The notes below the pieces were generated by a model. The model was not told the DNA's origin, ran no database searches, and was given only the letters and a program-made list of their open reading frames with translations. A stretch of 27,115 nucleotides of DNA. Source: Promethearchaeota archaeon (GTDB taxonomy: Archaea; Asgardarchaeota; Lokiarchaeia; Sigyniarchaeales; SOKP01). Shown here piece by piece: positions 8,987 to 27,115 of the stretch (within the stretch, counting starts at the first letter, position 1; each line of letters opens with the position of its first letter). The position numbers and the translations under genes are program-made. The stretch covers positions 1 to 27,115 of the forward strand of contig RDOA01000048.1 of NCBI GenBank assembly GCA_011364925.1, in the 5' to 3' direction.

Positions 8987-9087
8987 GCCTCCGTGGCTTA
9001 GCGGTATAGCAGCAGAATTTCATTAACTTCTATAATTTGCTGAAACTTGTAATCTGCAGATCGCGGGTTCAAATCCCGTCGGAGGCT
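8987..9087 (+). tRNA. tRNA-Thr(UGU) with 29-nt intron (9016-9044) at position 30/31
   Basis: Acceptor stem GCCTCCG/CGGAGGC with discriminator T; D-arm GCT..AGC; anticodon stem GCAGA/TCTGC with loop CT-TGT-AA after splicing; T-arm GCGGG-TTCAAAT-CCCGT. No encoded CCA; T-tract follows. Confidence 0.92.
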
Positions 9088-13120: not shown

Positions 13121-14215
13121 TTAGCGAACTGAAATTTTAGGAGCAGGAATAAAAACTTTCCTAAGGCCCGTTCTTCTTAATTTAATAGCATTTTCGGGAC
13201 AGGAGTGAGCACAGACTCCACATCCAAAACATCTATCCTCATTAACTTTAGCGGTGGCATCATTCAATTCAATTGAATTCATTGGACATGCATCCAAACA
13301 AGTACCACACCCAACACAATCGGTTTCGATGACATTTGCAATATACGATGTATAGGTGTGAGTTGGGGACGTTCCAGAATAAAACGCTTGAAAGTTACCA
13401 CAACAGCACGAGCAGCAATTACAAATAGCTAATTCTTCTTGTTGTGGATCCCCTCTTATATGGAACGCTTTATGAACTAAACCTATGTCTTCTGCTTCTT
13501 TTAATATTTTGAGTGCTTCTTCTTTAGAAATTGATTTTGCAAAGTTATGATCTATCACAAATTTGGCGGTTCTTCCGAAACTTAAGCAATTTTGTTTTGG
13601 AGCGTTAATTTTACAAGAATCTCCAAGTAAATCTTTTAGGTGCCGACAATAACAATATGAAACGCCTATTATATCGTATTTTTCTATAATTTTTCTTACC
13701 TCTTCCTCAGGTAATACTAGCTCTTCGTGTGGTTCTATTTGTTGTTCTATAGGGATTACTCTATCTATTGGTGGAGCTTCTTTAAACGCATTCATAACGA
13801 TATCGTAATTATTTTGAGTTACATCGGTCTCTTCTTTAAATAATGTATCCCACAATCTTGCTAGTTTCTTTTGTTTTTCTCCTGTTTCACCTTTCATAAG
13901 CGTAAATTCTAATAAACCGGGTAAGAAGGCAACTAATCGATAAACCGTTATTCCAGTAGTTTTACTTGGAATCCCCGTGATCATTCCAATGTTCATTAGC
14001 TCGTTTAACATATCGTTTAATGAAGTCTCCTCCATCTCGATTTTGGATTTTAGCTGATCAAAATTAAGTGGTTTTCTAAATTTCAAGAGAAAGACCAATT
14101 GATCTTCGTTTATTAAAGTTTTAAGTAATTCGATAAGAGTATTATTAATCGGAACGGGAGGTCCTCCAGCTCTAAGAATGTTTCTCGCCAGTTGATACCA
14201 TAACTTCTCAGACAC
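13121..14215 (-). CDS. 4Fe-4S binding protein (N-terminal HTH-like region, CxCR, ICNCCSCCC, C-terminal 2x[4Fe-4S] ferredoxin)
   Basis: CYCRH, ICNCCSCCC, CVGCGTCLDACP and CFGCGVCAHSCP. Probable GTG start at 14215 after GGGTGA (track start 14227). Confidence 0.85.
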   Translation of the reverse strand: MSEKLWYQLARNILRAGGPPVPINNTLIELLKTLINEDQLVFLLKFRKPLNFDQLKSKIEMEETSLNDMLNELMNIGMITGIPSKTTGITVYRLVAFLPGLLEFTLMKGETGEKQKKLARLWDTLFKEETDVTQNNYDIVMNAFKEAPPIDRVIPIEQQIEPHEELVLPEEEVRKIIEKYDIIGVSYCYCRHLKDLLGDSCKINAPKQNCLSFGRTAKFVIDHNFAKSISKEEALKILKEAEDIGLVHKAFHIRGDPQQEELAICNCCSCCCGNFQAFYSGTSPTHTYTSYIANVIETDCVGCGTCLDACPMNSIELNDATAKVNEDRCFGCGVCAHSCPENAIKLRRTGLRKVFIPAPKISVR

Positions 14216-14232
14216 TGTGTTAATCACCCGTT

Positions 14233-15342
14233 TTACATGGTTTTGATCCTAGGAGGTGGAACAAATACTTCACGATTTTCTACTCTTTTCAATATGATAG
14301 CCTGCTCGGGACAGTGATGAGCACAGACTCCGCAACCAATGCATTTTGAATCGTCGACTTTTGCGGTTGAGTCATTTAACTCAATGGTATTCATTGGACA
14401 TAAATCTATACAGGTTCCACAGCCTACACAGGTATCGTCCATTACTTCTGCTAAATAATTAGTAAAACAATGGTAAGGCATGACTCCATTACTATAAAGC
14501 TGAAAAATACCACAACAACAGGAACAACAATTACAAATAGCCTCTTCATCTAACTCAGTTTTTAGATGGATGTGAAATGCTTTGTGGACCAATCCTTCAT
14601 CTGAAGCTTTGCTAATTATTGCTTTAGCTTCTTCTTTTGATACTTTATTACCGAATTTATGTTCTATGGCAAATTGCGCGCTTTTACCTAGGAGAAAACA
14701 ATTTTTTCTCTCGTTTGTAACTTTACAGGGTTTTCCAAGTAAATCTCGAGAATGCCGACAATAACAATGAGCTAAAGCAATGTCGTCGAATTTGTCAACT
14801 ATTTTGGATACTTCTTCATTTGGTAAAATTTTTTCAACAGGAACATTATTTATTTCTTCTTCAACTGGAACAATTCTAACGATCGGAGGAAAGTTTTCCG
14901 ATTGTTTTACGAAAGTCTCATAATTATTTTGTGTTCCTTCTCGCATCTCAACAACCAGTTGTTCAAACAATTTAGCAATTTTCTTATGCCTTTCATCCGT
15001 TTCTCCTCTAAGATTAGTATATTCGAACATCCCTGGGAATGGTCCTAAGAGCCTATACACCATAGTACCTGTGCTCCTACTTCGCGTTCCAACGACAATT
15101 CCGTTATCCATCAAATCGTTTAGCATCTCAATTAATGCTTTTTTGTCAAGATTTGTCTTTTCTTTAATCTGTTCAATGCTTAAAGAAGGTTTTTTAAATA
15201 TCTGCAAAAAATCTGCTTGCTCTTCAGACATTATTAATTTTAATAATTCAATTAGAGTTTCGCTAATTGGCACTGGCATTTGTCCGGCTTTGACAATTGT
15301 TCGTGCTGCTTTATACCAGATTTTTTCACTTTCTAAAGTCAT
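14233..15342 (-). CDS. 4Fe-4S binding protein, tandem paralog of 13121..14215
   Basis: CYCRH, ICNCCSCCC, CVGCGTCIDLCP and CIGCGVCAHHCP; collinear with the downstream paralog over its full length. Confidence 0.85.
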   Translation of the reverse strand: MTLESEKIWYKAARTIVKAGQMPVPISETLIELLKLIMSEEQADFLQIFKKPSLSIEQIKEKTNLDKKALIEMLNDLMDNGIVVGTRSRSTGTMVYRLLGPFPGMFEYTNLRGETDERHKKIAKLFEQLVVEMREGTQNNYETFVKQSENFPPIVRIVPVEEEINNVPVEKILPNEEVSKIVDKFDDIALAHCYCRHSRDLLGKPCKVTNERKNCFLLGKSAQFAIEHKFGNKVSKEEAKAIISKASDEGLVHKAFHIHLKTELDEEAICNCCSCCCGIFQLYSNGVMPYHCFTNYLAEVMDDTCVGCGTCIDLCPMNTIELNDSTAKVDDSKCIGCGVCAHHCPEQAIILKRVENREVFVPPPRIKTM

Positions 15343-16121: not shown

Positions 16122-17306
16122 GTGTTTTATATCAATACAAAATATGCAAATAGAATAAGCAGTTTACCTGTATATATTTTCGCCGAAATTGAACAAATTA
16201 TAAATGAAAAAAAGAAGCAAGGAATGAATTTTATACCACTCGGTATTGGGGACCCAGATTTAACTACACCAGATTTAATAATAAATGAAATTATTGAACA
16301 GGTAAAACATCCAGAAAATCAAAATTATCCATCTAGCATGGGTGAGCAGGATTTTAGAGAAGCAGTTAAACGTTGGTATAGTGTAAGATTTAACTTAGAT
16401 TTTGATGCAAACGATGAAGTGACTAGTTTAATTGGAGGAAAAGAAGGAGTAGCTAATATTGCAAGAGCATTTGTTAACCCTGGAGATGTCGTATTGTGTC
16501 CAAATCCAGGATATCCCGTTTACGAAAACGGTGCCACAAAACTATGCGATGGTACACCTCATCCTGTTCCCTTATTAGAGGAAAATAACTTTTTACCAGA
16601 TTTTGAAGCTATTGATGTAGATATCCTCAAAAAAGCTAAATTAATGTATTTAAATTACCCAAATAATCCTACTGGGGCAATTGCACCTAAAAATTTTCTA
16701 AAAGAAGCTTCAGATTACGCTGAAGATTATAAATTCATTATTGTTTATGATAACCCTTATTCAGAATTCACGTACGAAGATTACACAGCACCTTCACTTT
16801 TAGAAATAGATCAAAATCATATTGAGATAAATAGCGCCTCTAAAATATTTTGCATGACTGGATTTAGGTGTGGTTGGGCAGTCGGGCATCGCGATGTTAT
16901 TAAAGGTATTCGAACTATTAAGTCCCATATCGATTCTGGTTGTCCTATATTTATTCAGAAAGCAGTAGCTAAAGGTTTAGACGAATATACATCAGAAGTT
17001 AAACCAAAAATAGTAAAAGAAACGATCGATACTTATGAAAGGAGGCGTGATGCTTTAATTACGGGATTGAATAAAATCGGATGGGAAACGAAAAAACCAA
17101 GAGCGACTTTTTATGTCTGGACTCGTATTCCCATGGAAGGAATTGATAGTATGGAATTTGTGAAAAAATTAATAGATGTTGGCGTAATCCTCACGCCTGG
17201 AATAGGTTTTGGAAAATATGGAGAAGGATACGTGAGATTTGCTCTGACTCAACCAATCGATAAAATAAAGGAAGCTTTAGAAAGAATAGAAAAATTACTC
17301 AACTAA
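16122..17306 (+). CDS. PLP-dependent class I/II aminotransferase, LL-diaminopimelate aminotransferase-like
   Basis: YIFAEI, LGIGDPD, LIGGKEG, PGYPVY, LNYPNNPTG, DNPYSE, SASK..CMTGFR.GW (PLP lysine) and PG.GFG..GEGYVRFAL. Substrate not determinable from motifs alone. Confidence 0.85.
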   Translation: MFYINTKYANRISSLPVYIFAEIEQIINEKKKQGMNFIPLGIGDPDLTTPDLIINEIIEQVKHPENQNYPSSMGEQDFREAVKRWYSVRFNLDFDANDEVTSLIGGKEGVANIARAFVNPGDVVLCPNPGYPVYENGATKLCDGTPHPVPLLEENNFLPDFEAIDVDILKKAKLMYLNYPNNPTGAIAPKNFLKEASDYAEDYKFIIVYDNPYSEFTYEDYTAPSLLEIDQNHIEINSASKIFCMTGFRCGWAVGHRDVIKGIRTIKSHIDSGCPIFIQKAVAKGLDEYTSEVKPKIVKETIDTYERRRDALITGLNKIGWETKKPRATFYVWTRIPMEGIDSMEFVKKLIDVGVILTPGIGFGKYGEGYVRFALTQPIDKIKEALERIEKLLN

Positions 17307-17342
17307 TACAATAATCCGTATTAAAACGATTTTTCTTTAAAA

Positions 17343-17522
17343 TTATTTATAATCTCTATTAATTTCATTCTCGATTTCAATTTCTCCGGGAGTCCAGGTT
17401 GTATAATCCAGATATTTCCAGAAGTTGCTTTCGCTCATACGAGATTTTTTTATCTTTATAAGATCTTTATTGCTTCCTAAAGGAAATTGGTTTTCAATTT
17501 TCTTAATAACTTCTTTTTCCAT
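17343..17522 (-). CDS. 59-aa microprotein A (MEKEVIKK...WTPGEIEIENEINRDYK)
   Basis: Strong GGAGGTG RBS (17534-17528) 5 nt before ATG 17522; lies downstream of structured leader A. Confidence 0.65.
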   Translation of the reverse strand: MEKEVIKKIENQFPLGSNKDLIKIKKSRMSESNFWKYLDYTTWTPGEIEIENEINRDYK

Positions 17523-17534
17523 TTTTTCACCTCC

Positions 17535-17749
17535 AAATATCAATTATATTTCCGTTGAGGTGCCGAAAACCTTTATGATTTCGATTTAATTAAATTTGGA
17601 TCCAATCAGGCGAGAGCAAATCCAAGAAAAAATTAAAAAGAAGATCGAAAAGGATCGACTCTCATTTATACAAATACTACCATTAATACTACTTCTAACA
17701 CGGATATAACTTTTTCAAATGAACATCGAACAGTAGTATTTATGATCAT
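17535..17749 (-). ncRNA. putative structured 5' leader, unit A
   Basis: Stem 1 AUAAAUACUACUGUU/AAUGGUAGUAUUUGU; stem 2 GAGAGUCGAUCC/GGAUUUGCUCUC around a U-rich loop with UCUUUUUAAUU; a weaker third domain follows. GU pairs form only on the minus strand. Homologous to unit B. Confidence 0.55.
17633..17665 (-). CDS. putative leader peptide MRVDPFRSSF (uORF in stem 2 of unit A)
   Basis: ATG..TAA occupies the same position as MKRINPFSFPFSF in unit B; length differs by whole codons. Confidence 0.35.
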   Translation of the reverse strand: MRVDPFRSSF

Positions 17750-17772
17750 TAAAATTAATATAGCAACGATAC

Positions 17773-17780
17773 TATTTAAA
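17773..17780 (-). promoter_or_regulatory. TATA box for unit A
   Basis: TTTAAATA preceded by purine-rich GAAACA, at -31..-24 relative to 17749, just 5' of stem 1. Confidence 0.45.
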
Positions 17781-17968
17781 TGTTTCATAGACTAAGCTAA
17801 TTTTAAGAAAACATATATTAGATAGGACTTTTTAATAAAATGAATCCAATTCTCATAATAAACAGAATATAAGCAATTCTAATCAACCCAAGGGTTGCAA
17901 CCAACTTAAAATTCCAATTTTTATACATAATTGACCAATATAATTAATATAAAAAGAAAAAATTGAAA

Positions 17969-18142
17969 CTATTTTGATAGTTTTTTATATTTTTGTCTCA
18001 GATAAGCCATTTTTTTATGATCCTCACTTTCTATTTTCCCAGGATAGTCTGAAATGTCAAACGACATCATAATCGGTGCAACATCAGAACTCCAATTTTT
18101 GTAGTACTCGACTATGGGATCTAGTTTTGCTTTATCTGCCAA
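17969..18142 (-). CDS. 57-aa microprotein B (MADKAKLDP...DYPGKIESEDHKK...)
   Basis: GGAGGTG RBS (18158-18152) 9 nt before an in-frame TTG at 18142; the track ATG 18160 overlaps the RBS. Lies downstream of structured leader B. Confidence 0.6.
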   Translation of the reverse strand: MADKAKLDPIVEYYKNWSSDVAPIMMSFDISDYPGKIESEDHKKMAYLRQKYKKLSK

Positions 18143-18159
18143 TTCATTCTTCACCTCCA

Positions 18160-18357
18160 TTTGCTATTTATAATTTTTGCGTCGAGAAGTGAATCCTATT
18201 CCCTCTTTTTCTTAGAAATTGATCGCAATTATACGCAGAGAATAAATCCAAACAATTAAAAAGAAAAAGGAAAAGAAAAAGGATTTATTCTCTTCATAAT
18301 ACTGTGATTAATGGAATATTGGTGCGCTTGCAACCAACCCATGAACCAGTATTATGT
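18160..18357 (-). ncRNA. putative structured 5' leader, unit B
   Basis: Stem 1 CAUAAUACUG/CAGUAUUAUG with inner AUGG/CCAU and GUUGGU/ACCAAU; stem 2 perfect 12 bp GAGAAUAAAUCC/GGAUUUAUUCUC around a U-rich loop with UCUUUUUAAUU; stem 3 UGCGU/ACGCA closing sub-hairpins. TATA-like TTTTTATA at 18388-18381. Confidence 0.6.
18256..18297 (-). CDS. putative leader peptide MKRINPFSFPFSF (extendable in frame to ATG 18342, 28 aa)
   Basis: ATG AAG AGA ATA AAT CCT TTT TCT TTT CCT TTT TCT TTT TAA; same position as the unit A uORF. Confidence 0.35.
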   Translation of the reverse strand: MKRINPFSFPFSF

Positions 18358-18561
18358 CGCGAAATATACATTATTAAAAATATAAAAAGAATGTACACTA
18401 ATAAATATTGTGGGCATTTATTCCCATATACTTTAATATTCTATTGAGCATTAATCAAAAATGTAACTAAAGCTGATTAATAATCTATTAAATTCATTAT
18501 GCTTTTTATTCATCATCGCAGATTATTTGCTAATATCTAAATTACAATATACTTTAGAATA

Positions 18562-20023: not shown

Positions 20024-20968
20024 ATGAAATCTAATACAAACAATAAATCTGAAGAGAAGATTACAAAAGCTACTGAACTTCTCTGGAAGATATGGTGGTT
20101 CAGTTTTTATTTAATCATAGTGCCGTCCTTAATTGCTGTTGTAGGATTTTTCATTTACTTCTTTGTCGGAAAAGACCTTTATGTCTCAATTGGTCTATCG
20201 GTTATAACTTTTATGTTTGTTCTGTTGTTTTTCTTTAAATCTTTTGATAAATATCGAAATAATCCATTTTTTCTCAACAAGAAAAACAATCTTTCCGCTA
20301 GGATCAATATCCTTTTCCTCATTACGATTTTATCACTTATTGTTACTCCAATTTTTGTAATTTTAACTCCGGGAGAAGACATCTATTTTGAGCTCTTACC
20401 TTTAATTTCGTTCATTTTACTTTATAACATAGTGTATTACTATTTTTTTTTCCAACCTATTGATAATTTTGACTTTACTGAATCAAGATATAAACACGAA
20501 TCCCCTTTTTCTGAATGGATTAAACAACCATACAATTTCATTGTGTTATTTAATTATGTCATTCATATTCTTTTTCTTTCATACACTTTTGATACTAAAA
20601 TATCCTGGTTATTTCCGCTTATCTCTAATGTAATATTTTATCTAATTAGCCGTTTAACTACCATAAAGAACATTAAGAGACTGACTGCATCTAACATAGA
20701 TGAAAAATCATTTTTACGAGAGTTAACCGTCTACAAGAAAAAATTCATAAATATAATTCTCACCTTAAACTTTACGCTAATAATTCAATTGCCCTTTGTA
20801 ATTACTTTGGGGTTTATCTTCTCGGGTGTTGATTACCAGGTATTGGAGTTAATTACGATATCGTTTTTAGCTTTAATCTTTTTATCGTTCTACTTTAAAA
20901 TCAGGTTGTACGTAAGTTCCTACTATAACAAACTACTTAGGAGGTTTGAAATCAATGAACACGAGTGA
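20024..20968 (+). CDS. multi-pass membrane protein of unknown function
   Basis: About 8 hydrophobic segments by eye. Start ATG 20024 or GTG 20015. Overlaps the start of the giant ORF by 14 nt. Confidence 0.75.
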   Translation: MKSNTNNKSEEKITKATELLWKIWWFSFYLIIVPSLIAVVGFFIYFFVGKDLYVSIGLSVITFMFVLLFFFKSFDKYRNNPFFLNKKNNLSARINILFLITILSLIVTPIFVILTPGEDIYFELLPLISFILLYNIVYYYFFFQPIDNFDFTESRYKHESPFSEWIKQPYNFIVLFNYVIHILFLSYTFDTKISWLFPLISNVIFYLISRLTTIKNIKRLTASNIDEKSFLRELTVYKKKFINIILTLNFTLIIQLPFVITLGFIFSGVDYQVLELITISFLALIFLSFYFKIRLYVSSYYNKLLRRFEINEHE

Positions 20969-23900
20969 TTCTGAGGATTTAGATTTAGATATTAACAGGA
21001 AATATTATAAATTAAATTTTGTAGTCTCGTTATTGTTAATCTTACTCACTTTTTCAGTTTCTATATTGAATAATACTCTTGTTATTGCTATTATTGCTTT
21101 ACCAGCAATGTTTATTCTCACCTATCTAGAGGAAAAATACAATTTTACTGTTAAAAGTTATAGTAGATTTGTATATCTAATTAACTGTACAATAATCTTA
21201 ATTTTAGTAATATTTTGGATTTTCTCGGCATATTTTGGGTTTAATTTCATTAATATACAATTTATAATTTTCAACTTGTCCTTTTATTTTATTTTACAAA
21301 TTTTTGTCAAATTTGACTATTTTAAAGAAAGGAACATTTTAATTGTCCAAAATATTTTCGCAGTTGCTACTTTTACAATTATTTTGTATTCTTTCTTTCC
21401 TTTTATCGAACTTATATACATAGATTTCACTTCAAATCCTATTTTAATACTAGTCTCTAATGTTATGATTCATTCGATTATTATCTTAATCATTACTTTA
21501 ATTTCTTTTTATTTCTTATATGCTAGGATCAAGTTATATAAGAAACCATGGAAGCTTTTTAATTATATCATAATAACCGTGTTCTTGTTAATCGAGATCA
21601 TTGGATTTACTTTATTAAATATTAGAAATTTCCATCTAGGCGTTCCAATATTTCAAAGGGGTTTGAAAGTATCAACCATTTTGCTCTCAGTTTCGTTTCT
21701 TATATTTGTATTATTTAATTACATTATTCGTGTTTTTGCTCGGGAACTTAGTCTACTGCTTGTTTACTACTCTTGCTGGTTTTTAGCTTCTTCGATCTTT
21801 TTGGTGCTCATCGTCCTTTATTGGAGTAATATTGTTATAGTATTTTTTGATTTAATTCTTGTAACAGTTCTTTCGCTTTTAAATTTAAAATTTGGAACTT
21901 ATCTGAAAAAAATCAAAGAGAAGACTTTCTTAAAATTAGTTAAATTTAGCTTTTATGCACTTCTGTTAGAGATCTTCTTATTATTCTACGGGATTTTCAA
22001 TTATTTCTTCTTCTTAAATATAATTATCTCTTTATTTCTCTCCTTGTGCATTATAGGAGGTATCTTTAACCTACTATCGTACTATGAAAAAGTTATATCA
22101 AGAAAAATCAGGATCATTATAACTTCATTCATCTTTCTTTCTGATATTTCTATTGTAATATTTTACTACATCACCGCTAACATTGGGTCTTTCTATGTTT
22201 ACCTGGTTCTTCCAATTATACTTTGTTTTCTATTCTATATTCCAATCTATTATCTGTATAAAGAAGATGTACTTAAAAAGAAAATTCTTGCACTATATAG
22301 TTATCTATCCTCATGGGCACTTACAATAATAATTTTCACGCTGAATTTTTTTATTATCGTTGCATATTTCTATGCAGACCTTCTATTAGGTTCTCTTTTA
22401 AATTTCTTGTTCCTGACTTTTTGTCTCGTTGTTCTCACATCCTTTGGTAGGAAAATAAAGAGGTTAAAAGAATCGTCCTCTCGGGTTATCTTAAATTTCT
22501 TAAGTTATCCTATTATGATAGAAATATTCATTCTTCTTTTTACTGTGTTCGCATTCTATCTCAGACTAGATGGCTTCTTATCCTCGTTTTTGTCGCTTTC
22601 TATAATTAGTTTTATTTTTTATTTGTTATCGAAGCAAGAAAAATTATTTCCTAAATTTCCGAAAATAATTTTAAACACAATCACATTTTACTTTGGTGTT
22701 TTCATTGCGGGATATTACAGCGTTTTGTTTACTCTTGGAACCTACTTTCTTTATTTCATACCGCTTATTATTATTAGTGTTCTTTCATATCTGCCAATTT
22801 TTTACTTATATAAGAAAACTGTTATAAATCGTAACACATTTTTAAAATATCATTTCTTTTGCTCTATAATTATCTCGCTGGCTATTTTCGCTTTCAATTT
22901 CTTTACGATTTTTAGCTTCTTAAACGTGTTTATAGTATTCTTGATAATAGTTAATATTCTTTATATTTCTGTTGTTTCTTATTACATTTCCAAATTAGGA
23001 GTAAAAGTGAACATTGTATCGAAAGAATTTTTTAAGAAGTTTTCTGCTTTCATAAATGTTTTAATTATTATAGAAGCCTATGCAATTTTGTACTCAATTT
23101 TTAACCAGGAGTTATTAGTAGAGCCAGTTTTATCAGCTTATTTTTCAACCATCCCTATTTGCTTCTTAATCAATGTTTTATCAAGATCAAGAATTATCTT
23201 CTCAGATAAAAGCGCGATTGGAATAAACATATTAACTTTAACTTTTACTAGTGCTCTCATATCTTACTATGCTTACTTATTTACTTATAACTCGATTCTT
23301 GTTTTTATTCTCCCTCCGTTAGTCTTTAGCATACTAATGTTAGCTCCTTTATATTATTCCTTAAGTAAGAGAATATTCCGCAAATTTGTTGAAAAAGTGT
23401 TGCTAGTAGACAGTTTGTTAATATGGATGTTAGTCGTTTCCCTCCCAACTATAATAAGTCTGGAGTTAATGAGAATTGGAATTATTATTGATTATAGTTT
23501 TATCCTGATTCCGACAATAATTTTGATCTTTGGAGTTTCAAGGTATATTGAGTTTCTTGTCGACAAATATAAGGTCAAGGAGAAATATATTGTTACTCTT
23601 AAATCAATTCAGATTATAATTTTTGTAGCTTTAGCTACATCCATCTGCTTAAGGATTTTCCAATTGATTTATTCTTTAACTTATAATTATTGGTTAAGTC
23701 TAGGAAGTTCTTGTTTAACTTTTTTAGTTGTCAATCTTATCAATCTAGTTCCATTAGAAAATCTTAAGCAAAGGATTTTTGAGAACGAAGGAAGTAAATA
23801 CGATTATTATAAAATCTACAAAATATTCGAATACACCAAAAATCTCTCATTTTTTGCCATAATAGTATCTCTAGCCTTTATAATTACACTGTTAATCCCC

Positions 23901-26900
23901 ACTCAGTTCTTAGTGTCTCTTTTGCATCTTCCTGAACCAGCACTCGTTCTTGTAGTCAGCAATATCGGAGTTTTTATTGTACTATATTTAATCTTATCAA
24001 CTATTGGTGGAACTTTATTTAAAGTAAATTTTATTAAATTAAAATCCACTTTTGAATTATCTGCATGGATTTTTGTTAATTTCCTGGTTTTCTTATATAT
24101 TTTTGTTCTCCCTATGCAATTTTCTTTACTCTTACGGATAACAATACCATTGGTAATCACTATTTTTATGTTCCCTATTACGCTTTATTATCTTCAAAAG
24201 CTCACATTCATCTCTGATAGGACACTGAAGTTCTCTAAGAAACTACTCTTTTATCTTTTTTCTGGCGGATTGATCGTTATTTTTGTCTATATATTCTGGT
24301 TATACTCCAATACCATCCCATTCTTTAGTTCGAATCTGTCTCTCCAAGTTTTCCTTGCAGGATGCTGTATATACCTATTTCTGAATTTCTACTTACTTAA
24401 ATTTGATGCAGTTGTCGAAAGAGCAACGGAATTTCGAATTGTAAAAATCTTTTCTGGCTCTTTTTTAGTATTATTCTCTTTATTTTCAGTATTCCCTAAC
24501 TTTCTTGATTATATATCTTACGCAGTCTTCATAATAGCAATAATTGTATTGCTCCTTAATCGAAACCGCAACTATTTAACACGCACAATCTATTACCTCT
24601 CCCTTAGTGCTTTTATATTCATTAAAGCGGTTGTGACTCTGAATCAATATATGCTAATTCCTTCTTTTAGTTTCACTTACATAACGCTTTATTCGTTCAT
24701 TTATAGCTTTTCGCTAATGGGAATGTTATTCTTATCGATTTTAATTAACTTAAAGAAAGTAAATGTAGTCGAAAAGTTTGCGTTATATTTTTTGATCTCT
24801 TTGAATTGCCTTATATTGTTGATTCTAAACACAGTGATTCCGTTAATTTACAACCTTTCAATTTCCGTATTCATATTCCTATTATTGACAAGTAATTTTT
24901 TCTATAGGCAAAAGGATGAGCGTTATAAATGGTTTATTAGACCGTGTGTACTTCTCTTCGCATTTGGTTTAGTAAGTTATCTTTCTTTTTATATCCTTTT
25001 CAACAATCCACTTTTTCAAGCTTTTAATCCAATCTTGACTTTCACATTAACTTCTACCATAACCGGTATTGCTTACGTAGGAACGTACAATAAAACACCT
25101 GAGAAGTTCAGAAGAATATCGTTTTACATTGCATTTTCAGTCTACATAATTTCATTTCCTACTTTTATGTATTTTTTCTTGAATGCTCTTTTTTCCTTAC
25201 AGTTATGGGATACATTCTTGTTTTTGATAACGATTAACATGGGAATTGCTCTATTTTATATCTCAATTGGTGTATATTACTGGAAGTTTTCGAGGGCGAT
25301 ATGGAAGACTGGTTGGAGAATTTGGATATTAGTTCCGTTTGTTAATTTCTATCTCATTAATGAATTGTTCACAAATATCTCATTTGTGAAAAATACACTA
25401 AATTTCTTTAACATTCTTAGTATTAATGGTTCATTTATTATATCGTTTGTAATATGCGTTCTAATTTCGCTACCTTTTTGGTATTCGTGGATTAAAAAGC
25501 ATTTTACTGTAGTACTCCTAGTAGTCTGGAGTTTAAGTTTGTTTTTCTTATATTGGTTCAGCCAAAATATTTTTCCAGATAATGTGGTAATAACCAATAT
25601 CGTATTTGTTGTATTCGCTATTTCTTTATTGGTTCCCCTAATCTATAGATTAAAACTTTGGAAAGTTATCACTGTTCTATGGCTAATTTATATCTTTGTA
25701 AATGTCTCGTTCTTTTTTACATTATTTTTAGAGATTCAATTATCTTTAGAAATCAATTTATCAATCAATATAATTATAATTGGACTCTTCTTTCTCATTT
25801 TGTCGTTTTTCCCGAATCTTCGGAACATAAAAAATGTAATTCTAATCGGTTCTTATCTCATTTCTCTAACAGGAATTTTTCTTACGCTTTTTAACATAAT
25901 TAATGCGATAATTTTGAATTTTTTCATTTCAATAAATATAGCTTTTATATTAATTGCATTGAGTTTATTTTCATCCAGAATCCTTAAACTCAACAGAACT
26001 TTCTTCAATTTCTTGATCTCCGCGATTTTAATCGTTAATTTCTCGTTGTTCACTTACAACGCTCTTATTTTGATCCCTGGATTCGAAATATTTTCAATAT
26101 TTCTAGCAATTACGGTTTTTGGTGGTTCTCTTTTCGTATTTAATAAATTTAGGATGATTATTCCAATAAAGAAATTAATTCCTTTAACGATATTATCTCT
26201 TGGAGTCTCCTTAACACTATCCTATTTAACATATACATTCTTACCCGGTTTCATTTACTTAGCGATAGCTGTTTTTATTTTGGTAAATTCCGTAATTTTA
26301 AGGTCACTACTCTACGAATACCGATTTATCTTGTGGTACGCCTTTCCAATTCCCTTAATTTTAATCTTTTTGCAATTTATAGTATTATCTGATTTATTTC
26401 AATCTCCGTTTGTTTTAATTCTATTATCTTTAATATTTTATACAGCATTAAATCAAATTCCATGTAGCTTATACAGAAAAAAAGTTAAAAATCAAGAAGA
26501 TCTAAAAGATTTTGGTTTATTAAAAGTTGAGCCCGTTCTCTTTTTGCTCCTCCATTTCGAAATCGGATTATTGAGTTATAGTTTAGTGAGTCAATTTCCA
26601 CCAATAGGTTTATTTGAAGCAATCCTAATCTCCATAATAGTTTTCTTTATCTCCACAATATCCGAAATCTACCTTTTTAAGAAAGCAAATGAAAAAGTAA
26701 TATATACATTTAATATAATTGCATATATCTTTATTACTATAGGAACCTTCGTATTTATACATCAATTCACAACGATAGATTTATCTATTTTTGTATTAAA
26801 CATAGTAGTGTTCTTAATTTTGCAATTCTATACACTCTATGCTTTTGCACATTATGTTGAAGTATTAACTCAATATGAAGCAAGTAAAATAAAAAAATTT

Positions 26901-27115
26901 CGAAAACAAATTCAAAATATCTTATTGAATTCAATTTTTATTGTAGTTAGTATATATATTTCGCTACTATTAAGTAATCTATTAATAGCATATAATCCAT
27001 TACTCTCTGGATTTGCCTCATTATCCTTTTTTGGGATGGTTTTTTCCTTATTGATGTTTGTACTTAACGGGATACTCAATCGCACAATAGAAAAAAGATT
27101 TAAAAATATAATTCT
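20955..27115 (+). CDS. giant polytopic membrane protein (>2050 aa, 3'-truncated) with internal 184-aa repeats
   Basis: ATG 20955 (MNTSDSEDLDLDINRKYYKLNFVVSLLLILL...). The frame is open wherever I read it, including the last bases (VLNGILNRTIEKRFKNII), and the track lists no closed ORF in this frame. Hydrophobic helices alternate with Lys-rich loops throughout. Confidence 0.85.
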   Translation, partial: MNTSDSEDLDLDINRKYYKLNFVVSLLLILLTFSVSILNNTLVIAIIALPAMFILTYLEEKYNFTVKSYSRFVYLINCTIILILVIFWIFSAYFGFNFINIQFIIFNLSFYFILQIFVKFDYFKERNILIVQNIFAVATFTIILYSFFPFIELIYIDFTSNPILILVSNVMIHSIIILIITLISFYFLYARIKLYKKPWKLFNYIIITVFLLIEIIGFTLLNIRNFHLGVPIFQRGLKVSTILLSVSFLIFVLFNYIIRVFARELSLLLVYYSCWFLASSIFLVLIVLYWSNIVIVFFDLILVTVLSLLNLKFGTYLKKIKEKTFLKLVKFSFYALLLEIFLLFYGIFNYFFFLNIIISLFLSLCIIGGIFNLLSYYEKVISRKIRIIITSFIFLSDISIVIFYYITANIGSFYVYLVLPIILCFLFYIPIYYLYKEDVLKKKILALYSYLSSWALTIIIFTLNFFIIVAYFYADLLLGSLLNFLFLTFCLVVLTSFGRKIKRLKESSSRVILNFLSYPIMIEIFILLFTVFAFYLRLDGFLSSFLSLSIISFIFYLLSKQEKLFPKFPKIILNTITFYFGVFIAGYYSVLFTLGTYFLYFIPLIIISVLSYLPIFYLYKKTVINRNTFLKYHFFCSIIISLAIFAFNFFTIFSFLNVFIVFLIIVNILYISVVSYYISKLGVKVNIVSKEFFKKFSAFINVLIIIEAYAILYSIFNQELLVEPVLSAYFSTIPICFLINVLSRSRIIFSDKSAIGINILTLTFTSALISYYAYLFTYNSILVFILPPLVFSILMLAPLYYSLSKRIFRKFVEKVLLVDSLLIWMLVVSLPTIISLELMRIGIIIDYSFILIPTIILIFGVSRYIEFLVDKYKVKEKYIVTLKSIQIIIFVALATSICLRIFQLIYSLTYNYWLSLGSSCLTFLVVNLINLVPLENLKQRIFENEGSKYDYYKIYKIFEYTKNLSFFAIIVSLAFIITLLIPTQFLVSLLHLPEPALVLVVSNIGVFIVLYLILSTIGGTLFKVNFIKLKSTFELSAWIFVNFLVFLYIFVLPMQFSLLLRITIPLVITIFMFPITLYYLQKLTFISDRTLKFSKKLLFYLFSGGLIVIFVYIFWLYSNTIPFFSSNLSLQVFLAGCCIYLFLNFYLLKFDAVVERATEFRIVKIFSGSFLVLFSLFSVFPNFLDYISYAVFIIAIIVLLLNRNRNYLTRTIYYLSLSAFIFIKAVVTLNQYMLIPSFSFTYITLYSFIYSFSLMGMLFLSILINLKKVNVVEKFALYFLISLNCLILLILNTVIPLIYNLSISVFIFLLLTSNFFYRQKDERYKWFIRPCVLLFAFGLVSYLSFYILFNNPLFQAFNPILTFTLTSTITGIAYVGTYNKTPEKFRRISFYIAFSVYIISFPTFMYFFLNALFSLQLWDTFLFLITINMGIALFYISIGVYYWKFSRAIWKTGWRIWILVPFVNFYLINELFTNISFVKNTLNFFNILSINGSFIISFVICVLISLPFWYSWIKKHFTVVLLVVWSLSLFFLYWFSQNIFPDNVVITNIVFVVFAISLLVPLIYRLKLWKVITVLWLIYIFVNVSFFFTLFLEIQLSLEINLSINIIIIGLFFLILSFFPNLRNIKNVILIGSYLISLTGIFLTLFNIINAIILNFFISINIAFILIALSLFSSRILKLNRTFFNFLISAILIVNFSLFTYNALILIPGFEIFSIFLAITVFGGSLFVFNKFRMIIPIKKLIPLTILSLGVSLTLSYLTYTFLPGFIYLAIAVFILVNSVILRSLLYEYRFILWYAFPIPLILIFLQFIVLSDLFQSPFVLILLSLIFYTALNQIPCSLYRKKVKNQEDLKDFGLLKVEPVLFLLLHFEIGLLSYSLVSQFPPIGLFEAILISIIVFFISTISEIYLFKKANEKVIYTFNIIAYIFITIGTFVFIHQFTTIDLSIFVLNIVVFLILQFYTLYAFAHYVEVLTQYEASKIKKFRKQIQNILLNSIFIVVSIYISLLLSNLLIAYNPLLSGFASLSFFGMVFSLLMFVLNGILNRTIEKRFKNII
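21891..23546 (+). repeat. three tandem protein-level repeats of 184 aa (552 nt) within the giant membrane ORF
   Basis: Anchor codons recur every 552 nt: Gly 21894/22446/22998, Glu 21969/22521/23073, Pro 22242/22794/23346 (PIYYLYK, PIFYLYK, PLYYSLSK). Confidence 0.8.

Follow-up and report, generated by a model that had tools for sequence, protein, structure and literature searches.

A conserved leader reading frame and a U-loop hairpin before two microprotein genes of Asgard archaea: a probable ribosome-mediated attenuator

The window, by which we mean the whole stretch of 27,115 nucleotides that was analysed (contig C58 of a 3.9 Mb genome with 33% G+C), harbors a minus-strand cassette of two units, each composed of a leader of ~230 nt and a gene of ~60 codons. 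In both leaders a conserved short reading frame, a hairpin with a U-rich loop, a purine-rich segment and the SD sequence of a microprotein gene follow each other in this order. With moderate confidence we propose that each unit is a ribosome-mediated attenuator in which the nuclease FttA/aCPSF1 would act at the U-loop, with an additional anti-SD layer in unit B; unit B would sense valine and leucine, and unit A probably a general shortage. A sequence-only reading of the same DNA had assigned such control to two tiny Phe/Ser/Pro reading frames across the loop. The peptides of that reading are wrong, and the attenuator is probably real.

The cassette and its microproteins

The upstream unit A and the downstream unit B are flanked by a convergent gene for a PLP aminotransferase, of which the nearest family is LL-diaminopimelate aminotransferase with a score below the cut-off, and by a divergent gene for a family 4 glycosidase. 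The features of the two units are:

18398..18405, minus strand: TATA-like box of unit A, 27 nt upstream of the AUG of leader ORF A
18294..18371, minus strand: leader ORF A, 25 codons, of a mixed-composition family; spans stem 1, with its stop at the foot of stem 2
18295..18356, minus strand: stem 1 of unit A, within the leader ORF; its arms are 18356-18347 and 18304-18295
18256..18297, minus strand: Phe/Ser/Pro ORF of unit A, present in the window, not conserved; its AUG overlaps the leader TGA
18237..18293, minus strand: stem 2 of unit A, formed by arm S (18293-18281) and arm S' (18249-18237) around the U-rich loop (18280-18250)
18184..18213, minus strand: purine-rich segment S'' of unit A, able to form a competing long hairpin with the loop and arm S
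18152..18158, minus strand: SD of microprotein A
17969..18142, minus strand: gene of microprotein A, 57 aa, without a known family; start inferred as TTG
17773..17780, minus strand: TATA-like box of unit B, from the survey of TATA-like motifs
17666..17749, minus strand: leader ORF B, 27 codons, 8 Val; the leaders of its family close with a Val/Leu run of the form (GUA)n(UUA)n
17685..17740, minus strand: stem 1 of unit B, with arms at 17740-17732 and 17693-17685 whose complementarity is seen in the sequence
17633..17665, minus strand: Phe/Ser/Pro ORF of unit B, retained by most near relatives and missing from other genera
17612..17663, minus strand: stem 2 of unit B, arm S 17663-17652, U-rich loop 17651-17624, arm S' 17623-17612
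17556..17582, minus strand: segment S'' of unit B, with the anti-SD CACCUC at 17562-17557
17528..17534, minus strand: SD of microprotein B
17343..17522, minus strand: gene of microprotein B, 59 aa, without a known family; distantly paralogous to A

Homologs of the units were gathered through DNA and protein searches; these and the loci named below belong to the Lokiarchaeia/Promethearchaeia, i.e. the Asgard archaea. The sample for unit A comprises 134 distinct leaders (53 after 90% clustering), that of the near relatives of unit B 34 leaders (13 clusters at 90% identity), the distant sample 15 leaders, mostly from other genera, and a further set 24 leaders; all are kin, and counts of homologs overstate their independence. 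A blastn search of the units against their own genome at low stringency returned A+T-rich noise only.

Microproteins A and B share a D-x-S-x-x-P-G-E-I-E motif (hhalign E 1e-4). Their family is present in 101 of the 134 genomes of the host's family and was not found in 26 genomes from other families of the class. Pfam, NCBIfam, PHROGs, PDB sequences and the ESM Atlas gave nothing usable for these proteins. An AlphaFold model of A shows two short helices (pTM 0.27), and the Atlas shape matches to this model all have TM values below 0.5. The inferred start of microprotein A (18142-18140 on the minus strand of the window; among the homologs e.g. L018-L030) lies 6-9 nt past an invariant SD and is a non-AUG codon in 112 of 134 homologs (TTG 50, CTG 33, ACG 29); the ACG start keeps its frame when the spacer changes. 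An out-of-frame AUG located 4 nt past the SD of the window's unit A opens an ORF of 8 codons. At eight loci of other genera (L224, L233, L235, L236, L238, L240-L242) the two genes stand in reverse order: first a B-like gene of 45 residues with the Val/Leu leader, then an A-like gene that lacks the hairpin leader. Locus L225 (2501-3451, plus strand) contains four small related ORFs in a row, one of which has only the N-terminal motif of microprotein A.

Three further observations concern other parts of the window. A 101-nt Rfam tRNA match at 8987-9087 (plus strand) was missed by ARAGORN, and its surplus length in the anticodon arm suggests an intron. An ORF of >2000 codons at 20946-27115 (plus strand), very hydrophobic by eye, overlaps the preceding 317-aa ORF and runs past the contig end. 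Positions 13121-15342 (minus strand) encode two tandem paralogs of 368 and 369 aa, each combining a 4Fe-4S dicluster domain with a weak match to a helix-turn-helix.

Leader reading frames and the Phe/Ser/Pro frames

All 134 homologs of unit A and all 34 of unit B possess a leader ORF just upstream of the position of the Phe/Ser/Pro ORF. It starts 69-98 nt before stem 2 and stops between -5 and +6 nt from the 5' arm of this stem in every one of these leaders, with a length of 23-32 codons that varies by whole codons; the chance of an open frame in a shuffled leader is 0.06-0.13. The leader ORF ends where the Phe/Ser/Pro ORF begins, with a TGA overlapping the AUG in unit A and a TAA directly before the AUG in unit B. 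In 72 of 78 representatives (48/53 for A, 13/13 for B and 11/12 for the distant leaders) a TATA-like motif lies 22-36 nt upstream of the leader AUG, and none of the 78 has an SD before the leader ORF. Judged by this position of the TATA-like box and the lack of an SD, the leader ORFs are probably leaderless, with the mRNA, according to the inferred transcription start, beginning at about the leader AUG. A conserved short ORF upstream of the gene under putative control is thus found in unit A, in unit B and in other genera.

The composition of the leaders varies between the units. In the leader B family, GUA or UUA account for 106 of the 130 last-ten codons; the window's own leader B, with its 8 Val in 27 codons, is more diverged than its relatives. 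In several further genera of the family, a Val/Leu leader followed by the hairpin is likewise found in front of A-like genes or of B-like genes with 45 residues. The leader A family is without a single enriched amino acid and without a run, and its leaders contain on average 17.1 distinct amino acids, against 13.8 in proteome fragments and 14.2 in nucleotide shuffles. The excess is seen in three sequence classes (median p 0.008-0.05) and in two other genera (p 0.02-0.03), and not in the window copy (15 of 25, p 0.22). As moderate evidence, this diversity suggests that leader A may be a general sensor. Tandem control codons for one amino acid family occur in unit B and in the leuS copies described below, not in the mixed leader of unit A.

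The two Phe/Ser/Pro ORFs proposed earlier as conserved leader peptides are indeed found at 17665-17633 (10 aa) and 18297-18256 (13 aa) of the minus strand. Both cross the U-rich loop of the hairpin, their Phe codons are UUU throughout, and the difference in length is three codons. The proposed conservation is not borne out in unit A, where the AUG is kept in 79 of 134 leaders, and the AUG with a stop in the loop in 31 (11 of 53 after 90% clustering). The 134 sequences divide into 55 without the AUG, 22 with an early stop (18 of these being 4-codon ORFs), 26 with read-through and the 31 that stop in the loop. In unit A the two arms of stem 2 lie between 41 and 46 nt apart, with each intermediate distance represented, and no reading frame is therefore maintained across the loop. 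In the near relatives of unit B, where the AUG sits base-paired in an extension of the stem, it is retained in 34 of 34 leaders and the same stop in 27 of 34; it occurs in 0 of the 15 distant leaders and in 3 of the further 24, every time arising at the junction of a final Leu codon and the leader stop (TTA TGA). Homolog L006 has TAA in place of TGA, by which the leader stop is retained and the AUG of the Phe/Ser/Pro ORF is lost.

Across the homologous leaders the stem and the U-loop therefore persist where AUG or frame is gone, an outcome that the sequence-only reading had itself named as contrary to its model, and the Phe-ORF model fails on this account. As units A and B are homologous RNAs, the likeness of the two Phe peptides is not independent evidence. 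Any frame across a U/C tract yields Phe, Ser, Pro or Leu, and the alternative put forward along with the model, that the likeness is a by-product of RNA conservation, is supported for these peptides. Judged from the alignments, the Phe/Ser/Pro ORFs are by-products of the U/C-rich RNA loop without a conserved role. Translation of these frames with sensing of Phe, for example by termination-reinitiation after the leader stop, could draw on the overlap (A) or abutment (B) of the AUG with that stop, an arrangement shown to couple translation in archaea (PMC6728339), and on the AUG and stop kept by the near relatives of unit B. Against the losses in unit A and in the distant leaders, the out-of-frame loop lengths, the TGA to TAA change in L006, the lack of an SD and a residue content that follows from the U/C loop, it is highly unlikely, and as a family-wide mechanism it is already refuted by the sequence comparison. 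The system shares with E. coli pheL/pheM leader-peptide attenuation in general, but a conserved Phe-rich leader ORF was not found among the homologs of A and B, the conserved leaders are not Phe-rich, and the downstream genes encode orphan microproteins, with no Phe biosynthesis or PheRS gene among them. What stands of the earlier proposal is the general idea that a ribosome on a small ORF gates stem 2 and the U-tract, and through them the microprotein gene; the ORF in question is the upstream leader, and the control codons are Val/Leu (B) or a broad mix (A) in place of Phe.

RNA folds, the leuS copy and the attenuation model

Stem 2 consists of 12-16 pairs that enclose a loop of about 28 nt with 55-63% U and 1.6-2.0 U4 tracts, and the U-tract is conserved in all copies of the element. 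The stem folds 7-11 kcal/mol better than shuffled sequences (in unit A -17.6 versus -6.2 kcal/mol), and 95% of the cells are paired in an alignment of 52 A leaders; stem 2 of the window's unit B is weaker than in its relatives. The helix between loop and S'' is 86% paired with two-sided changes in 8 of 11 pairs, a result that no shuffle or slid register reached, in a test for which the structure was read from the same sequences and whose result is inflated by kinship. The duplex of S and loop with S'' has an energy of -24.8 kcal/mol with the cognate partner, -17.0 with swapped partners and -9.3 with shuffled ones. Since S and the loop pair with S'', and S also pairs with S', two exclusive folds share arm S, and these lie within reach of a ribosome on the leader.

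In the window's unit A, positions 18193-18185 on the 3' side of S'' match the SD as a complement over 9 bp. In unit B the anti-SD CACCUC, a perfect complement of the SD with two bases unneeded for pairing with S, is present in 30 of 34 leaders and as wobble variants in 3 more, and its energy is -10.2 kcal/mol as compared to -7.0 in 38 control genes. The anti-SD of A and of the distant genera is no stronger than in these 38 controls (median percentile 0.47 and 0.6). In nine unit B leaders (L007, L010, L050-L054, L056, L058) ~11 nt comprising the loop end and the inner 3' arm of stem 2 are deleted; the leader ORF, the purine segment and the anti-SD are still there. The leaders gave no relevant Rfam match at gathering and E-value thresholds. 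Classical transcription attenuators of the trp/his/ilv type use an intrinsic terminator, and a bacterial-type G+C hairpin followed by a U-run was not found in 17300-18560. SECIS, T-box and type I toxin-antitoxin elements were considered and dropped, as such motifs and Rfam matches are lacking and the microproteins are not hydrophobic.

A search of the genome with a stem-2 profile revealed one further significant copy, on contig C56 (E 1e-7), with 9 Leu in the last 16 codons of its leader. The gene behind it encodes an archaeal leucine-tRNA ligase (leucyl-tRNA synthetase, leuS), and a composition-based genome scan for leaders, restricted to ATG starts and 100-aa genes, also recovered leuS. The leaders of 13 leuS loci contain 6-9 Leu and 1-3 Val, those of the microprotein loci 2-7 Val. 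At the leuS copy the control codons thus match the function of the downstream gene, as expected of an attenuator. The same RNA element is found at L252 (G032:C14 near 48100) behind an Ile/Val-rich short ORF, where the large gene downstream has a start unlike that of LeuRS.

The effect of ribosome position was modeled by folding nascent RNA, transcribed to the end of stem 2, with an imposed ribosome footprint; the footprint of archaeal ribosomes measures 27 nt (PMC7261190). With the A site well upstream, at a distance from the stop of at least about 4 codons in B and distant leaders and 6 in A, the probability of stem 2 is 0.8-0.96; it falls to 0.04-0.09 once the ribosome is at the stop, a melting that is partly built in by the way the footprint was imposed. 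Stem 2 also forms without leader translation, so the model predicts read-through by default. Upon equilibrium folding of full-length RNA, SD pairing is 0.54-0.62 for the stalled ribosome versus 0.64-0.84 at the stop; the shift is modest and hardly visible in the window's own units. This folding weakly supports a second layer of control by S'', described below.

The direction of the response can be deduced from leuS, which should rise when Leu is short; stem 2 would then be the ON form. This fits the properties of FttA/aCPSF1, which threads RNA from -1 to -36, with a preference for U at -23 and -30 to -36 (PMC11616081). Its efficacy grows with U4 tracts (Li 2021, as reviewed in PMC13675443). 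The genome encodes aCPSF1 (TIGR03675, above cut-off), and the loop, with its U4 tracts and about 60% U, has the base composition expected of an FttA/aCPSF1 terminator.

We infer the following mechanism, in which translation and stalling on the leader and the action of FttA are assumed. When amino acids are plentiful, the ribosome would reach the leader stop and cover arm S, the loop and S' would leave RNA polymerase single-stranded and U-rich, and FttA/aCPSF1 would cleave and terminate (OFF). In full-length unit B RNA with the ribosome at the stop, the freed anti-SD would also close the SD. A ribosome stalled earlier, at least some four codons short of the stop in B and six in A, would allow stem 2 to fold and block the threading of FttA, after which the long hairpin would bury the U-tract (ON). 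Segment S'' would be transcribed too late to shield the loop from FttA; afterwards it would bury the U-tract and, in unit B, free the SD. Unit B would respond to Val/Leu and unit A probably to a general shortage of amino acids or of translation, and the microproteins would be starvation-induced effectors. The more specific picture of a leader-peptide attenuation in Lokiarchaeia that relies on FttA, a CPSF73-like nuclease, and on a hairpin hiding a U-tract, in which leader A, with about 17 of the 20 amino acids, is a pan-amino-acid sensor that switches on a weakly initiated microprotein in a general starvation response, is tentative and rather doubtful as a whole.

The same ORFs and the same sensing could have a purely translational output, similar to that of the mycobacterial polycysteine attenuators: with the ribosome at the stop, the 3' portion of S'' would become free and sequester the SD. 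The anti-SD of unit B with its frequency and energy and the 9-bp anti-SD of the window's unit A agree with this, as does SD pairing, which in each of the three sets is highest for a ribosome at the stop; however, the anti-SD of A and the distant genera does not exceed the controls, the leuS leader of this genome has no GGAGG SD after the element, and the U-tract is kept in all copies. We regard this output as unlikely. That hydrophobic leader peptides act in trans, as membrane micropeptide or toxin, while the RNA stabilises or processes the transcript without any sensing, is quite improbable: the B peptides do end in at least 10 Val/Leu, and stem 1 by itself favours GUA/UUA repeats opposite AAU/ACU repeats, but the run varies freely in length with almost only GUA/UUA, its composition moves to Leu before leuS, and the A leaders are not hydrophobic at unchanged geometry. 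The structure is well conserved, and its U-rich, single-stranded loop could also be that of a ligand- or protein-binding riboregulator (e.g. Lsm/SmAP on the U-loop) with incidental ORFs. To this we attach very little probability, as every homolog maintains an open frame with a fixed stop position despite many indels and no Rfam match was obtained.

Relation to known attenuators and significance

Ribosome-stalling control by a short reading frame and a folding RNA is known from bacteria. Among the leader-peptide attenuators for branched-chain amino acids are ilvL, ivbL and leuL of E. coli, and the leucine-rich attenuator peptide of S. aureus belongs to the same type (PMC5794164). Similar to these, the proposed attenuator has a short upstream ORF with a Val/Leu run, competing helices and, at the leuS copy, an amino acid that fits the downstream gene. 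Unlike these, it occurs in an archaeal host, its U-tract lies inside the hairpin loop instead of behind a G+C hairpin, read-through would go with the hairpin that forms during a stall, and the regulated genes encode orphan microproteins. The mycobacterial polycysteine attenuators use a leaderless short ORF as sensor (bioRxiv 10.1101/834739). They resemble the present element in this sensor, which is probably leaderless here too, in the release of a downstream ribosome-binding site by stalling, as proposed here, and in one sensor type common to several loci, whereas the codons here are Val/Leu or mixed instead of Cys, the anti-SD is clear only in unit B, and the conserved U-loop suggests a termination step. 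Leader-peptide attenuation by E. coli tnaC and Salmonella mgtL is Rho-dependent. There, as proposed here, ribosome position and RNA fold set the access of a termination factor to a pyrimidine-rich loading site; the factor in the present case would be the nuclease FttA/aCPSF1. In searches of the open literature, largely outside the subscription journals, no report of ribosome-mediated leader-peptide attenuation in archaea was found.

Competition between the ribosome and FttA on nascent RNA has been proposed (PMC8116511, PMC11616081), and the element described here offers a small, portable test of it. If real, the attenuator would mean that, in a lineage close to the eukaryotes, ribosomal amino-acid sensing is tied to the archaeal relative of the nuclease that makes 3' ends in eukaryotes. 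It also marks an unannotated, family-wide pair of microproteins as likely starvation effectors; our best guess, from their regulation alone, is that these act as low-level, starvation-induced effectors.
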